From a virus (Duplodnaviria; Heunggongvirae; Uroviricota; Caudoviricetes), in IMG/VR virus record IMGVR_UViG_2778261533_000002, positions 1-9,795 of that record: a stretch of 9,795 nucleotides of DNA. One strand, 5' to 3'. This document shows positions 236-9,795 of the stretch, in pieces. The position numbers were made by a program, and so were the translations under genes. A model generated the notes under the pieces. The model was not told the origin of the DNA. It did not search any database and saw nothing but the letters and a program-made list of their open reading frames with translations. Position 1 is the first letter of the stretch; each line of letters starts with the position of its first letter.

Positions 236-1309
236 TTATTTCAACTTTAACGCCAAATCTTCAGCTTTTGGATGATAATACCGCATTAGCATTCTTGGAT
301 CTTTATGTCCTGTAATTTTGGTCAGTTCATGCATAGGGAAAATTTCAGCAAGTCGAGAAGTTGCTTCATGTCGAAGGTCATGAAATCTTAAATCTTTAAG
401 GAATGATTCATCACATAATGAGTTTGTTTTCTCGTATCGTTCTCTGGCTCGTTTTACAGCTCGGTCAAAAGCTCGGGTAATCGCGTCTGCACGCATATCA
501 AAAACCTTATCAGCAGCTGGCTTAGAATGTTCCTTGAGACTGGACAGTATCGTGATGGCTTTCGTTGATAAAGGGACATCGCGGGCATTACCATTCTTAG
601 TATCCGGCAGATGTGCAACTCGCCGATCAAGATCGATAAAGCGCCATCGAAGCTCTGCGATTTCGCTACGGCGCATGGCTGTCTCTAACGCCAGAAGAAT
701 GATTGCTGGCAATACTAATGAATGTGTTGCGGCGATGATATGTTCGATCTCGTTGGCTATTTCCTTTCCTGACGTAACACCGGTTTTCTCAGAAACTACA
801 GGCAGCGCTTCCAGGCGTCTGGTCCTGGAGTTCTTGGGTTGAGGTTTGCGAATGGCCTCTACGGGGTTCAGCAGGCTCTCCATGCCCCATTCTTTCCGCG
901 AAACGTTGAATACATGAGAAAGTAAGGCCAAACGCCTTAAAACGGTTGCAGGGGCATAGATTTTCAACCATTCATCTCTCAGCTTGGCGACATCGGCACT
1001 CCTGATGCTGGCCATATAGTTTTTCGCCAGCTGAGTGCCTTTTAGTATCCGCACCAATGATCGGTCTTGCACTGCCCCTTTTTTGTCGGGAACAATCTCT
1101 TTTTCATATCGCGTTAGGGCTTCATACAATGTCGTAGATTCCGCTTCGCTGCGGCTAAGCCAAACTCCTCTCGCCATTTCTGACTCGATCATTTTGGCCC
1201 AAGCTTCTGCTTCTACTTTGGTGTTAAAGGTTTTGGTTTGAGAGGGAAAACCTCGTTTACGGATTTGAGCTTCCCATTGGTAGTTACCACGTTTGCGTAT
1301 AGTCGCCAT
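236..1309 (-). CDS. Tyrosine-type site-specific integrase of element A
   Basis: Open frame 236-1339 on the minus strand. The track start at 1339 is TTG; the in-frame ATG at 1309 (MATIRKRGNYQWEAQIRKRG...) is the more likely start. C-terminal catalytic signature of tyrosine recombinases is present: RFHDLRHEATSRL and the tyrosine in MRYYH. Stop at 236-238. Confidence 0.85.
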   Translation of the reverse strand: MATIRKRGNYQWEAQIRKRGFPSQTKTFNTKVEAEAWAKMIESEMARGVWLSRSEAESTTLYEALTRYEKEIVPDKKGAVQDRSLVRILKGTQLAKNYMASIRSADVAKLRDEWLKIYAPATVLRRLALLSHVFNVSRKEWGMESLLNPVEAIRKPQPKNSRTRRLEALPVVSEKTGVTSGKEIANEIEHIIAATHSLVLPAIILLALETAMRRSEIAELRWRFIDLDRRVAHLPDTKNGNARDVPLSTKAITILSSLKEHSKPAADKVFDMRADAITRAFDRAVKRARERYEKTNSLCDESFLKDLRFHDLRHEATSRLAEIFPMHELTKITGHKDPRMLMRYYHPKAEDLALKLK

Positions 1310-3156: not shown

Positions 3157-3518
3157 TATGCTCCAGCCTCCGGTGCTTTTGGCATTACTGCCCAGTGAGT
3201 GATATTGACGTTTTCAAGGTCCCCGACCTGAAATGTCCACTGCCATTCTCCGGTTTCTTTTTGTCCCCAGGTGTACCAGAGAGAACGCCAACCAATTAGC
3301 CAGCCTTCTCCGTTAGCATCGAATAACAAAACACTTTCATTTGCTGGTGGCAGTTCAGTTGACACTGGTATTACTTTGTTTTCCTGTGCTGCACATTTAG
3401 CTTCAAGCGCATCGAATTTACGCACCAGGTATTCAGCATCTGTTTCATTTACTTTCAGATCTCGCGGTACACATCTCCCACGAAGAAACCCTTCCATTTC
3501 GAAAACATTCATGCGCAT
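3156..3518 (-). CDS. DUF551-like phage protein (120 aa)
   Basis: ATG at 3516-3518 is preceded by GGAG at an appropriate distance. The C-terminal segment WQWTFQVGDLENVNITHWAVMPKAPE resembles the conserved THWMPLPEPP end of DUF551 proteins, as I recall the family. First gene of the leftward operon. Confidence 0.65.
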   Translation of the reverse strand: MRMNVFEMEGFLRGRCVPRDLKVNETDAEYLVRKFDALEAKCAAQENKVIPVSTELPPANESVLLFDANGEGWLIGWRSLWYTWGQKETGEWQWTFQVGDLENVNITHWAVMPKAPEAGA

Positions 3519-3973
3519 TTGCGTAACTCCGATAACTCGTTAAAGCGTTCCATAAACATCCCGTAACAGACAACAGGGCAGAGAACGGTGCTGTCTTTTT
3601 CAGTTTGAGAGTGGCGGTGTTAGTTTCTCCACAAAACAGAGAAGAACACCTGCGGTGGCAGCCGCCCGGATGGATTGGGTTATGAGCCCGTCGTCCGGTG
3701 ATGCTCTTCTCTGTTTTGTAAAAAGAGCGGTACCAGCCGGAAGCAAGTGTACAAACTGGTACCGCCAAAGCAGTGGCTGTTGTGGTGACCGGTGCTGATC
3801 TCCGGCTTGCGGTTATTTCAGACTCTCACGGGCGTTTAATTGCCCCGCCGAACAGCTCTTTTCCGCAATAGCTGCAATGTCTTTCGCGCATCAGTCTGCG
3901 CATTCACCACAACGCTGAGAGCACTTAGCCAGTTATCTATCCGAAAGATTAACAGAACACCTTCAATTTTTAA
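3519..3973. promoter_or_regulatory. Divergent control region between the leftward (int/xis) and rightward operons; contains two large inverted repeats and no ORF
   Basis: Imperfect palindrome with 18-bp arms (3631-3648 and 3702-3719, 17 of 18 complementary) separated by 53 bp. Immediately after, a perfect 10-bp inverted repeat GCGGTACCAG/CTGGTACCGC (3727-3736 and 3756-3765) with a 19-bp spacer. A hairpin followed by TTTTT lies at about 3566-3600. Promoter hexamers were not confidently assigned. Confidence 0.4.
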
Positions 3974-4057
3974 CCACAGAACGATGAGGCTAACCGCAAT
4001 GCGTCGAATGTTTATCAGCTTAACGTTGCGAAGCTTCAGGCAGCGGCATTTTCTCAA

Positions 4058-5190: not shown

Positions 5191-5843
5191 TGAGTAATAA
5201 ATATTGCCAGGCGCTGGCGGAACTGCGGAACAAACCAGCCCATGAACTGAAGGAAGTGGGCGATCAGTGGCGCACGCCGGACAACATTTTCTGGGGAATT
5301 AACACTCTGTTTGGCCCGTTTGTTCTGGATCTGTTTACTGACGGTGATAACGCCAAATGTGCTGCGTATTACACGGCGGAAGACAACGCGCTGGCGCATG
5401 ACTGGTCAGAACGCCTTGCGGAGCTTAAAGGTGCTGCCTTTGGTAATCCCCCATACAGCCGCGCCAGTCAGCATGAGGGGCAATACATCACCGGCATGCG
5501 TTACATCATGAAGCATGCCAGTGCCATGCGTGATAAAGGCGGGCGCTATGTTTTCCTGATCAAAGCTGCCACCAGCGAAGTGTGGTGGCCGGAAGATGCA
5601 GATCATATTGCTTTTATTCGCGGGCGTATTGGTTTTGAACTGCCTGCCTGGTTTATCCCGAAGGATGAGAAGCAGGTGCCGACAGGCGCTTTCTTCGCTG
5701 GTGCTATTGCTGTTTTCGACAAGACCTGGAAGGGACCGGCAATCAGCTACATCGGGCGCTATGAACTTGAGGCATGTGGTGAGGCCTTTCTGGCGCAGGT
5801 TCGCCAGCAGGCAGAAAAACTGGTCAGGGAGATGGCGGCATGA
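5190..5843 (+). CDS. Phage Dam-type DNA N6-adenine methyltransferase (217 aa)
   Basis: ATG at 5190 is preceded by GGGGG and overlaps the upstream stop; the track GTG at 5157 is less likely. Motifs [10 protein letters not shown] and FGNPPYS (catalytic NPPY) fit the small phage Dam family found in T1 and lambdoid nin regions. Stop at 5841-5843 overlaps the next ATG (ATGA). Confidence 0.75.
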
Positions 5844-6154
5844 CGACGTTAACTCAATGCCAGCAGCAGGTGCTGGATATGCTGATTTCTTATCAGAAAG
5901 AACGTGGCTTCCCGCCAACCAATCAGGAGGTGGCAACCATGCTGGGATGCATGGCCCGTCTGAAAAAGAACAACAGCGATTTGCACGATTTATTAGTAGA
6001 TTATTATGTAGGTGGTATGACGTTTATGGCGCTTGCCCGTAAACATGGGCGTTCTGATTGCTGGGTTGGGCGCTTATTGCAAAAGGCAGAAGGCATCATT
6101 GAAGGTATGTTGATAATGTTAGAAATAGAATTGGAAATGGACTCAAATATCTAG
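5840..6154 (+). CDS. Q-like late antiterminator (QuuD/21-type short Q) with an atypical LexA-like N-terminus (104 aa)
   Basis: ATGA-coupled to the MTase. The C-terminal two thirds ([35 protein letters not shown]...AEGIIEGML) resemble my recollection of the DLP12 QuuD antiterminator. The N-terminal 36 aa ([33 protein letters not shown]) instead resemble the LexA N-terminal DNA-binding helix pair. The last 20 codons lie in AT-rich sequence. Confidence 0.5.
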
Positions 6155-6326: not shown

Positions 6327-7778
6327 TTATTTTATTTTGCTTACTATATTTGTAATAAGTGGGTCAAATTTCTCATCAATAATTTCAATATATTTTTTAA
6401 TTGCTAAAGTTCTAATTACTTCCTCCTCACATTCTGCTTCTTTAGCAATTGCTTGAGTGTAATTGTGATGATCACTAATCCCTTCCTTTTTTATTAACCA
6501 ATCAAAATCAATATGATACTCCTTGTAGAGGAATTTTTTTACTTCCTCATGTTGAAATACTTCTACTTCTGGTGGCCTATTGCCAGGGAAAGAAAATAAA
6601 TCATCTTTAATGTTTTCTCCAACATCTGCATCTCTTACGGCAATAACATTAAGGCCTGCTTTCTTGAATACCTCGACTGCTTGTCGGACTGCATCTTTAT
6701 CTCCAATATCAGTGATTTGAATGGATTTAAGAATGTCTCTCCGCTTTGCTCTAATTACTTCACTAAGTAAAACTTTTGCAAACTGGTCTTCTACGCAAAT
6801 ATGCAGCCCTTTAAACTGCCCATCAGACAGTATTGATCTCACATGAGTTGTTGAAATTCCATCTTTGATATAGACACCAGTCTGATCTCTAATAAGTAAT
6901 TTTCGTGCATCAGGAGGTAAAGCATTTAATATCACACTTGAGTGTGTTGATAATATTATTTGATGTTTTCTACGTTGACATACTTCCATTAAATATTTTG
7001 CAAATTCATACTGTGCGCTTTCATGAAGAGATGTTTCTGGTTCTTCTAGTACGAAAAGACTTTGCTCTGGAGCTGTTTCAAGCATATCAACCGTATAAAG
7101 AACTCTTCCTTCGCCAAACCCCATGTTATTTTCAGAATAAGAATACCCAAGTCTTTCAACAATACCAATTTCTGAACGACGTGCTCTATGAGAAATTCCT
7201 TGGAATGCGATATCATCATATGGATGACCTATTATTTTTGCCATCTTCAATATTACTGAATGGTCGACGCTTCTTCTCTCTGTTAAATCAAAGTCTTTAC
7301 CGCCATAAACACTTATATCTCTACGTTCTACTTTTGGAATATAGACAGTAAAACCAATGTAAAAACAGTGTCTTTCTGGTTGTCTTTTATATCCAGACCA
7401 AGAAGACTTTATGCGAGTGACAGTCACATCTTGTGTTTTCGTTGAATCATTTGTTTCATATTTATAAATGACACTGGCGTCATTATCGAAAGGGGCTGGA
7501 TCGGCTTTAGATACAGGGAAAAAATCTTTAATATATAATCTCTTATATTCACGGGCTGTAACTGGTTTTTTATATGCGCATATTGCTAACTGCCCAAGAG
7601 TGCTTTTCCCAGCGCCGTTTAGCCCTGATATTGCAGTTACCGGAAAATTTATATTTAATGTTAGTTTTTTTATTCCTCGAAATCCATTTATCTCTAGACT
7701 TTTAATTACGGAGCCAAAGTTTGAGTATCTATTTTTATCAAAGTACATGCATTTTAGTATATTTTTTATGTCTGACAT
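6327..7778 (-). CDS. ABC-type ATPase fused to a Toprim-like nuclease domain; OLD/PARIS/Gabija-like candidate anti-phage defence protein (483 aa)
   Basis: ATG at 7776-7778 has AGGAAAG upstream and an in-frame TAA two codons before it. Walker A GLNGAGKST (about aa 52-60, read directly from the DNA as GGG CTA AAC GGC GCT GGG AAA AGC ACT). Walker B plus D-loop LFVLEEPETSLH (about 241-252). H-loop ILSTHS (about 275-280). C-terminal Toprim-like signature: CVEDQFAKVLL (Glu about 330) and, about 55 aa later, AVRDADVGE (DxDxG, about 383-387). Confidence 0.7.
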   Translation of the reverse strand: MSDIKNILKCMYFDKNRYSNFGSVIKSLEINGFRGIKKLTLNINFPVTAISGLNGAGKSTLGQLAICAYKKPVTAREYKRLYIKDFFPVSKADPAPFDNDASVIYKYETNDSTKTQDVTVTRIKSSWSGYKRQPERHCFYIGFTVYIPKVERRDISVYGGKDFDLTERRSVDHSVILKMAKIIGHPYDDIAFQGISHRARRSEIGIVERLGYSYSENNMGFGEGRVLYTVDMLETAPEQSLFVLEEPETSLHESAQYEFAKYLMEVCQRRKHQIILSTHSSVILNALPPDARKLLIRDQTGVYIKDGISTTHVRSILSDGQFKGLHICVEDQFAKVLLSEVIRAKRRDILKSIQITDIGDKDAVRQAVEVFKKAGLNVIAVRDADVGENIKDDLFSFPGNRPPEVEVFQHEEVKKFLYKEYHIDFDWLIKKEGISDHHNYTQAIAKEAECEEEVIRTLAIKKYIEIIDEKFDPLITNIVSKIK

Positions 7779-8043
7779 TTTTTATCTTTCCTGATATGAA
7801 TGAGAGTTATCTTTAGAAAAACAATAAATTTATAACATTTAGAGATGTATTCATCAATGATTGGGTAAATATCGTGCATTTGTTGTTTTAAAATCAACCA
7901 AGAATGATTTTTATAATTATGTCAATTGCCTTATTATCAATATGGTAATGTTTTCTCAATCTAATTATTGGGGGGGAATATATTATTTACAATCGTAAAT
8001 AATCAGATATGCTCTCAAGAGTGGTTACTTCGCCACACAACTT

Positions 8044-8069
8044 AAACCCGCCGTCGAGCGGGTTTTTTT
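8044..8069 (+). terminator. Rho-independent terminator (plus strand)
   Basis: aaacccgc-cgtcga-gcgggttt hairpin (GC core CCCGC/GCGGG) followed directly by a T run of 7 (8063-8069). It marks the right edge of the AT-rich island. Confidence 0.65.
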
Positions 8070-8191
8070 GTACCTGTAAACCTGGTGCAGTACGGTAAAC
8101 ACGCTGGTGGTCGTGAATACTGACTTTTTATCTTGCTGGCTTTTTAGACAAGAGTTATTGGTATGTCATGTTAACCAGAAGGAAAAAAGAC

Positions 8192-8535: not shown

Positions 8536-9588
8536 ATGAAAAATACTGTAAAAATAAACAGTGTTGATTTAATCAACGCTGATTGCCTGCATTTTATTCA
8601 GTCCCTGCCTGATGATTCCATTGACCTGATTGTTACCGATCCGCCGTACTTCAAGGTGAAACCCAACGGTTGGGACAATCAGTGGAAAGGGGACGAAGAT
8701 TACCTTAAGTGGCTGGACCACTGTCTGGCCCAGTTCTGGCGGGTGTTGAAACCTGCCGGAAGCCTTTACCTGTTCTGTGGGCATCGCCTGGCATCTGATA
8801 TTGAGATCATGATGCGTGAACGTTTCAACGTGCTTAACCATATCATCTGGGCGAAGCCGTCCGGACGTTGGAATGGGTGTAATAAAGAAAGTCTGCGCGC
8901 ATATTTTCCTGCCACAGAGCGCGTTCTGTTTGCTGAACATTACCAGGGGCCATATCGCGGCAAAAGTGACGGCTATGCGGCAAAAGAAAGGGAACTCAAA
9001 CAGCACATAATGGCACCGCTGATATCGTATTTCAGGGATGCTCGTGCCGAACTGGGTATAACGGCAAAACAAATTGCCGAAGCCACAGGTAAGAAAAATA
9101 TGGTTTCCCACTGGTTTGGTGCCAGTCAGTGGCAGTTGCCGAATGAGGCTGACTATCGGAAGTTACAGGCACTGTTTTCCCGTATAGCGGCAGAGAAGTT
9201 TCAGGAACAACAACTGGAACAACCACACCACCAGCTGGTGGCATCTTATGATTCACTGAATCGCAAATATTCTGAATTGCTGGATGAGTTTAAATCTCTC
9301 CGGCGCTATTTCTCCGTATCAGTCTCCGTGCCTTATACCGATGTCTGGATGCATAAACCCGTTCAGTTCTACCCGGGTAAACATCCGTGTGAGAAACCGG
9401 CGGATATGCTCAGGCAAATAATCAATGCCAGTAGTCGACCTGGTGATCTGGTTGCTGATTTTTTTATGGGATCCGGTTCCACAATAAAAGCAGCAATGGC
9501 GCTGGGGCGTCGGGCCTTAGGTGTTGAGCTTGAGTCAGAGCGGTTTAACCAGACAGTGAAAGAGATAAACGAGCTGGTGGGGAAATAA
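8536..9588 (+). CDS. DNA methyltransferase, beta-class N6-adenine/N4-cytosine type (motif IV before motif I), 350 aa; no cognate endonuclease in the window
   Basis: N-terminal [12 protein letters not shown] (catalytic DPPY) and C-terminal [17 protein letters not shown] (AdoMet-binding FxGxG). The central target-recognition region contains an HTH-like segment ([12 protein letters not shown]). A GATC sits immediately 5' of the ATG. Confidence 0.85.
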
Positions 9589-9594
9589 TCTGGT

Positions 9595-9620
9595 GGCCAC
9601 GTCAGGTGGCCTTTTTATTT
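9595..9620 (+). terminator. Rho-independent terminator after the MTase, in the position of a late-region tR'-like terminator upstream of the holin start
   Basis: ggccac-gtcag-gtggcc hairpin (9595-9611) followed by TTTTTATTT (9612-9620), 7 nt after the MTase stop and 36 nt before the holin-like ATG. Confidence 0.65.
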
Positions 9621-9655
9621 CCATTACACAGCACCCGCATCTGCGAGGTGGGGTT

Positions 9656-9784
9656 ATGAAATCCATGGATAAGTTAACAACGGGTGTCGCCTATGGCACC
9701 TCAGCAGGTAGTGCCGGGTACTGGTTTTTACAGTTTGAACCGTCCCGGGAATCCTGGAGACTAAACTCCCTGAGAAAGAGGTAA
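9656..9784 (+). pseudogene. N-terminal remnant of an S21/EssD-type pinholin (dual-start MKSM motif and first transmembrane/SAR segment only)
   Basis: ATG at 9656 is preceded by [33 protein letters not shown] matches the first 26 residues of phage 21 S as I recall them. The frame then diverges ([16 protein letters not shown]) and stops at 9782-9784, and no frame in the remaining window encodes a second TMD. A new RBS-ATG (AAAGAGG, ATG at 9789) follows. Confidence 0.45.
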
Positions 9785-9795
9785 ACAGGATGACT

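Follow-up and report, generated by a model that had tools for sequence, protein, structure and literature searches.

Evidence that an IS629/IS1203-type insertion split the pinholin gene essD in a prophage remnant of Escherichia coli

The DNA analysed here, referred to as the window, is the whole of the 9795-bp draft contig NMHY01000063.1 (assembly GCA_002512315.1), a contig common to four samples, and it contains the remnant of a lambdoid prophage and, over its final 60 nt, insertion sequence (IS) DNA. Relative to the thrW prophage of E. coli ATCC 43886, the closest undeleted relative, four deletions have taken away ∼7 kb and left five collinear blocks in the window. Parts of yfdR and yfdQ, the cI- and cro-like regulators, ymfL and part of a replication gene are missing, and three of the four deletions, those affecting these genes, fall within 3565–3987. 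The stretch running from rusA through a kilA-N gene to a DUF968 gene is also missing; it was removed by a 2.6-kb deletion with a 9 bp overlap at the junction, which generated an in-frame LexA::Q fusion (5840–6154, forward strand) of LexA-family residues 1–36 and the C-terminal 69 residues of the 123-aa antiterminator Q. A previous description of this DNA, made from its letters without database searches (the first-pass annotation), had regarded the prophage as defective, and the four deletions together with the truncated Q support this view on grounds separate from the state of the holin gene. Homology to ATCC 43886 begins at 1398 with the 3′ 49 nt of tRNA-Thr (thrW); ARAGORN detected no tRNA in the window, in which only these 49 nt are present. 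A second integrase gene (236–1309, reverse strand) is located in window DNA that was not found in ATCC 43886, and over positions 1–1446 the thrW site appears to be occupied by two integrative elements arranged in tandem.

The interval from Q to the holin gene is where cargo genes are located in lambdoid phages. Here the window contains a gene for an AAA_15/AAA_21/DUF2813 ATPase (6327–7778, reverse strand), annotated as an 'ATP-dependent nuclease' in relatives, and an N6/N4 DNA methyltransferase gene (8536–9588, forward strand; PF01555, E = 2e-42), annotated as a DNA-methyltransferase in relatives, both of which are possibly defence-related. In the corresponding contig of a sister assembly (L003, from GCA_958313175.1) an IS5-type element was found in place of window stretch 6754–8012.

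At 3.4 kb downstream of Q, and 7 nt past the end of the methyltransferase reading frame, lies a hairpin resembling an intrinsic terminator (GGCCAC-GTCAG-GTGGCC, 9595–9611, forward strand), with a 6-bp stem, a 5-nt loop and a T-run (TTTTTATTT) extending to 9620. The predicted fold had a dG of −12.2 kcal/mol (z = −2.2 vs shuffles), and 9595–9620 was kept at 100% identity in the intact relatives. This element had been described as tR′-like; the hairpin and the T-run are real, and the tR′ label is doubtful. The lambda tR′ terminator ends the short pR′ transcript and is read through by Q-modified polymerase. An intrinsic terminator in that role is expected at a short distance downstream of pR′, beside Q, but here Q ends at 6154, and the reverse-strand nuclease gene and the methyltransferase gene intervene. 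Moreover, the hairpin was not found upstream of the identical holin gene of phage 434, in which homology with the window starts only 16 nt before the holin ATG; the hairpin therefore belongs to the methyltransferase module, where it forms the terminator of that gene, and 9595–9620 is read here as terminating an inserted module that is embedded in the late transcription unit. A promoter-like site (TTAAAA-18-TATAAT, 7888–7917), agreeing with the consensus at 10 of 12 positions, is followed after ∼130 nt by a stronger terminator (8044–8065; 8-bp stem, U7, −13.8 kcal/mol). The stretch 7888–8072 forms a candidate pR′/tR′ pair, which the reverse-strand nuclease gene sets apart from Q; on consensus matching, this pair would be better placed for the role than the hairpin at 9595.

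The hairpin is followed by the 5′ fragment of essD, which encodes an S21-type class II holin (pinholin). From 9500 to 9735 the sequence matched many complete E. coli genomes at 100% identity; there it is annotated as the end of a DNA-methyltransferase gene and then essD ('phage lysis protein EssD'); among these genomes none matched past 9735. The essD fragment (9656–9735, forward strand), which consists of codons 1–26 plus 2 nt and includes the MKSM motif and nearly all of the first transmembrane domain (TMD1), was 100% identical to the intact essD genes of E. coli SA186 and ATCC 43886. Alignment to the SA186 gene showed identity through ...TTACAGTT and complete divergence afterwards, which places the breakpoint between 9735 and 9736. 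Intact EssD has 71 aa, and many functional lambdoid phages have a holin that matches it at 100% identity; among them is phage 434, whose annotated S71 antiholin/S68 class II holin is the same protein and is followed by the SAR endolysin and the spanins. S21 proper is close but not identical, with Ile at position 7 where the window allele has Leu; the match of the 26 N-terminal residues to S21/EssD, including MKSM, that had been reported is exact for EssD. The dual start of a pinholin is preserved, with MKSM encoded at 9656–9667 behind a ribosome binding region (9645–9654, forward strand) that offers GAGGT for Met1 and GGGGT for Met4. In the expert-annotated phage 434 record (OL657227) an identical sequence carries two ribosome binding site features, one for the S71 and one for the S68 product.

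The remainder of the reading frame is not that of a holin. As had been noted from the sequence, the frame departs after codon 26 and stops 16 codons later, giving a 42-aa chimeric ORF (9656–9784, forward strand; ATG at 9656, TAA at 9782–9784) composed of EssD residues 1–26 and 16 residues encoded by the terminal repeat of an IS. These 16 residues, which follow Q26 and end the ORF, are hydrophilic, and a second TMD is absent: the highest hydropathy over 15 residues in the 42-aa ORF was 0.61 vs 2.12 for TMD2 of intact EssD. The ORF keeps the aromatic patch YWFLQ and has F in place of the W/L that comes next. Against PF04971 (phage P21 holin S; cut-off 26 bits) the 42-aa ORF scored 33.6 bits over profile positions 1–23 of 64 only, compared with 121 bits over positions 1–63 for intact EssD. 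With no TMD2 left on the window ORF, the conclusion that the holin had been destroyed holds, and the 42-aa ORF represents a fragment of a gene rather than a holin.

The sequence that replaces the end of essD is the left end of an IS of the IS629/IS1203 group, IS3 family (9736–9795, forward strand), of which the first 60 nt (TGAACCGTCCCGGG...) are present before the contig end. A query with 9730–9795 gave 16,648 matches, distributed over 3059 of the 5426 complete E. coli genomes and located at IS3 family transposase loci on chromosomes and plasmids, with up to 50 per genome, as is characteristic of a multicopy mobile element. Read at one multicopy locus, the element was 1310 bp in length, starting with TGAACCGCCCCGGG... 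and ending with ...CCGGGGCGGTTCA; the same length was obtained in three loci (L002, L007 and L008, the last from strain FDAARGOS_1058), and the terminal inverted repeats have the 5′-TG...CA-3′ form, with TGAACCGTCCCGGG on the left at 9736 and ...CCGGGGCGGTTCA on the right in L007 and L008. The 60-nt tail of the window was identical to the start of the complete 1310-bp element in both L007 and L008. RefSeq annotates the element as 'IS3 family transposase, programmed frameshift' together with a pseudoknot, in line with the overlapping orfA and orfB of this group, which a programmed −1 frameshift joins, and the window holds the first two codons of orfA only (MT..., from the ATG at 9790–9792 to 9795), behind the Shine-Dalgarno sequence AAAGAGG at 9775–9781; in the longer copies, L003 and L007, orfA continues as MTKNTRFSPEVRQRA.... 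The AAAGAGG motif and ATG had been recorded previously, the ATG one position too early at 9789, and had been taken for the start of a new gene; it is the start of the IS transposase. Similarly, the recombination breakpoint that had been placed near 9734 was correct as to site, and its cause is the left terminus of an IS (TGAACCG...) rather than an unspecified recombination.

The element was assigned at the level of the IS629/IS1203 group, and no named isoform (IS629, IS1203 or IS3411) was chosen. IS1203 and IS3411 are isoforms of IS629, the sub-types of which differ by 4–5% (PMC3271280). The window variant, which has T at IS position 8, differed from two other copies read at 61–87 of 1310 nt, a spread that falls in the same range as that reported between the sub-types. 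Of the IS629 copies in O157 genomes, 62% are located in prophages (PMC3271280). A full-text literature search with the string of the IS terminal repeat returned no paper.

The stop at 9795 is due to the repeated IS, which blocks short-read assembly, and no sequence lies beyond 9795 in the record because the draft contig is broken inside this repeat. The left junction was found in a second assembly, GCA_958313175.1, where contig L003 has a junction identical to that of the window and stops 124 nt into the IS. The 42-aa product is accordingly on record from two contigs only (NMHY01000063.1 and L003), both of them drafts broken within the repeat, and its protein cluster has a single member. The left junction was absent from all complete RefSeq E. 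coli genomes, and an exact scan for the 34-nt junction in the GTDB representative genomes, among which E. coli and Shigella are one representative, gave no match.

If an IS had inserted into essD, the right junction could be predicted beforehand as the IS right end followed by GTT and GCTCGATAAAG (the rest of essD), with an open chimeric ORF in the essD frame. A search with this predicted ORF retrieved several proteins with IS-derived N-termini and EssD residues 27–71 as C-termini. One of these (P0122) is encoded on contig 82 of GCA_958313175.1 (L007), the same assembly as L003. On this contig a 1310-bp IS (1489–2798), the first 60 nt of which are identical to the window tail and the first 124 nt to the L003 tail, is followed by GTT and then by GCTCGATAAAGTC..., which represents essD codons 27–71. 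GTT is also the last triplet of essD in the window (9733–9735, forward strand), and the L007 right junction reads ...GGTTCA/GTT/GCTCGAT, the two copies forming a 3-bp target-site duplication. Removal of the IS and one GTT restores essD exactly: when window 9656–9735 is fused with the 3′ part from L007, the resulting gene of 216 nt encodes the exact 71-aa EssD and differs from the SA186 gene at two nucleotides, both silent. The junctions were read on two contigs, the right one in the sister assembly GCA_958313175.1 and not in the window's own assembly, GCA_002512315.1; a matching chimeric protein record, WP_097412906.1 (P0002), is a shorter version of the same ORF and probably comes from the latter. 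Downstream of the essD 3′ part, the next genes in L007 are those for a lysozyme of 165 aa and an Rz protein of 153 aa, and then bor. The holin–endolysin–spanin order is absent from the window, and a check for the rest of the lysis cassette beyond 9795, which the first-pass annotation had proposed, comes to an end with the record itself and finds the cassette at the right end of the IS in the sister assembly.

These data make it close to certain that insertion of an IS629/IS1203-type element split essD in the prophage remnant and that the window shows the left part of this event. A 1310-bp element would have transposed into essD between codons 26 and 27 in the orientation of the gene, duplicating GTT, the target being an S21-type pinholin gene in a lambdoid prophage remnant at thrW (tRNA-Thr) of an E. 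coli strain. The insertion would part the regulatory N-terminal TMD1, left on an ORF whose last 16 codons belong to the IS terminal repeat, from the hole-forming TMD2, left at the right end of the IS ahead of the endolysin and Rz genes, and the late transcript would then yield no functional holin. In S21, as published dissection of the protein shows, TMD2 is both required for pores and sufficient to form them, and TMD1 with its N-terminal lysine times the triggering. Judged from this published work, holin function was probably lost, and we infer that the 42-aa product cannot form pinholes and would be at best a weakly membrane-associated peptide. Its expression is doubtful, since the ORF stands behind a terminator in a prophage remnant with a truncated Q.

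The two halves of essD may have become separated after the insertion. On the left side of its IS, L007 does not have the 5′ part of essD: the order on this single contig is cdiA-CT, cdiI-o11, the IS, GTT, the essD 3′ part and the lysozyme gene. The junction between cdiI and the IS was found at 100% identity in six complete genomes, where it is the site of a resident IS, and the copy at the cdiI site of FDAARGOS_1058 was identical to the L007 element over 1310 of 1310 nt. Recombination of the inserted element with the identical IS copy beside cdiI-o11, most simply an inversion, could have produced this order, which would refine the insertion reading rather than replace it. In the recombined arrangement the essD 5′ half of the window would lead into an IS and the old right flank of the cdiI copy, and the essD 3′ half and the lysis genes would lie beside cdiI. 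There is a precedent in an unrelated strain, on a 5.2-Mb contig (L005), in which an independent insertion at the same essD site is accompanied by a segment inverted between two inverted IS copies: two identical, inverted elements enclose an inverted prophage segment (613–10059), and the essD 5′ part (reverse strand, adjoining the IS end at 1922) and 3′ part (from 10060) are 8 kb apart in opposite orientation. The resident element of FDAARGOS_1058 (L008, 4590–5899, by cdiI-o11) abuts a truncated PAPS-reductase gene on its right and lacks a target duplication, having GTT as its left and GAC as its right flank, from which it appears that this copy has itself taken part in a deletion or rearrangement.

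Against recombination between IS copies stands the nature of the data, for an identical 1.3-kb repeat is normally unbridgeable by short reads and the path through L007 may be a mis-join made by the assembler. The tail lengths bear on this point. The IS tails of 60 nt in the window (9736–9795) and 124 nt in L003 (9739–9862) become 63 and 127 with the shared GTT added, and these values fit de Bruijn contigs that end one k-mer past a merge with another IS in-edge ending in GTT, for example that of the cdiI copy; for L003 the length of 127 would agree with the merging of two in-edges in a graph built at k = 127. The essD halves may flank one and the same IS copy, and the L007 order may reflect either rearrangement between IS copies or an arbitrary path of the assembler. 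We regard the recombination as plausible, at somewhat short of an even chance.

Other explanations of the junction fared worse. Taken by itself, the window shows a holin 5′ fragment, then non-homologous sequence and nothing more, as would be expected if a breakpoint of illegitimate or homologous recombination, or a deletion, had joined the 5′ end of the gene to unrelated DNA bearing a new gene, with loss of the rest. The start of the non-homologous part, however, coincides exactly with the TG terminus of an IS known in many copies, and the missing 3′ part of essD is present at the right end of that IS with a matching GTT duplication; a reciprocal junction with a 3-bp duplication argues for transposition and not deletion, which leaves this account extremely unlikely. 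The window is also a short draft contig ending in a repeat, and an assembly chimera, with essD not really hit, might have been suspected, but the left junction was present in two independent assemblies, the contig was found in four samples and the reciprocal junction with its target duplication exists as well, so that a chimera can scarcely be credited. There is a negligible probability that the 42-aa ORF encodes a true short membrane protein, maintained by selection for its own sake: it keeps its start codons, its ribosome binding sites and most of the weakly hydrophobic TMD1, but its tail is IS terminal-repeat sequence, it lies behind a terminator in a remnant with truncated Q, and no homologue sharing the tail, which had been named as the finding that would make it a bona fide short protein, was found beyond the one-member cluster on two contigs. 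The genuine short protein, the chimera and the holin 3′ deletion were all rejected.

Insertions of IS629-type elements in class II holin genes were observed repeatedly, in at least five or six independent events (P0001–P0008, L005:10059, L007:2798 and window 9735/9736). Three of these events, in three alleles, fall at the same codon, Q26: the window lineage, P0003, where the IS is of another sub-type and the duplication is 4 bp long (GTTA), and P0008, which has an S21-like allele. The insertions in P0004 and P0005 are 2–3 bp to the right of this site, and those in P0001 and P0006 are 6–9 codons away. Holin codon 26 looks like an insertion hot spot, contrary to the statement that IS629 has no sequence-based target (PMC3271280). 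The triplet GTT, often within CAGTT or CGGTT, flanks the IS in five of the six junction sets read (window 9733–9735; L002:2003–2005 and 3316–3318; L008:4587–4589; L005:610–612 and 10060–10062), the exception being the second L002 copy with the flank TTC. As read from these flanks, GTT may represent a target preference; the three hits at codon 26 hint at a sequence-specific hot spot, a reading that we nevertheless consider highly unlikely.

The reciprocal product of the insertion is an ORF at L007:2722–2937, in which 26 IS-encoded residues (MLPSETMIWQPEFTDKTLSWKPGAVQ) are joined in frame to EssD residues 27–71. It keeps the EssD loop, TMD2 and C-terminus and is without TMD1, and no obvious Shine-Dalgarno sequence precedes either of its ATG codons. 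NCBI annotates this chimeric ORF as a 'class II holin family protein' (WP_097412906.1) despite its being an insertion artefact. It is a long shot that the ORF, if it were transcribed from the transposase message, could act as an unregulated membrane-depolarising peptide, in which case the reciprocal chimera might outweigh the 42-aa fragment in importance.

The first-pass annotation was thus partly supported, being right on the effect and the location of the change and wrong on its cause, on the 'new gene' and on the fate of the cassette. The proper label for the locus is 'essD pseudogene interrupted by an IS629-family element', in place of a short holin-like protein followed by a new gene, and the case illustrates that contigs of draft assemblies ending in repeats can look like 'breakpoints'. 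IS inactivation of a prophage holin is an ordinary, known kind of event; this is another case of insertion sequences inactivating prophage lysis genes and fixing a remnant in the chromosome. The apparent hot spot at codon 26 and the possible chromosome rearrangement between IS copies are of modest additional value.

Several features of the locus can be compared with known systems. The hairpin at 9595 resembles lambda tR′ in being a GC-rich hairpin with a U-run, on the late strand and upstream of the holin gene, and differs from it in lying 3.4 kb from Q, directly behind a methyltransferase gene and in an inserted module. The IS shares with IS629, IS1203 and IS3411 of E. coli O157:H7, O111 and Shigella its length of 1310 bp and its TGAACCG...CGGTTCA ends, and likewise the orfA start MTKNTRFSPEV, the annotated programmed frameshift of orfAB and a target duplication of 3 bp; these elements are also alike in occurring many times in a genome and in favouring prophage DNA. 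The S21 pinholin (S71 antiholin/S68 holin) of the lambdoid phage 21, EssD of prophage DLP12 and the phage 434 holin have a 71-aa intact allele with an MKSM dual start, TMD1, a loop, TMD2 and a basic C-terminus, and their genes are followed by those for the SAR endolysin and the spanins. The window ORF retains residues 1–26 of this design exactly and, unlike these holins, is without the loop, TMD2 and C-terminus, having 16 IS-encoded residues instead. The reciprocal ORF resembles engineered S21 pinholins from which TMD1 was deleted, which still form pores.
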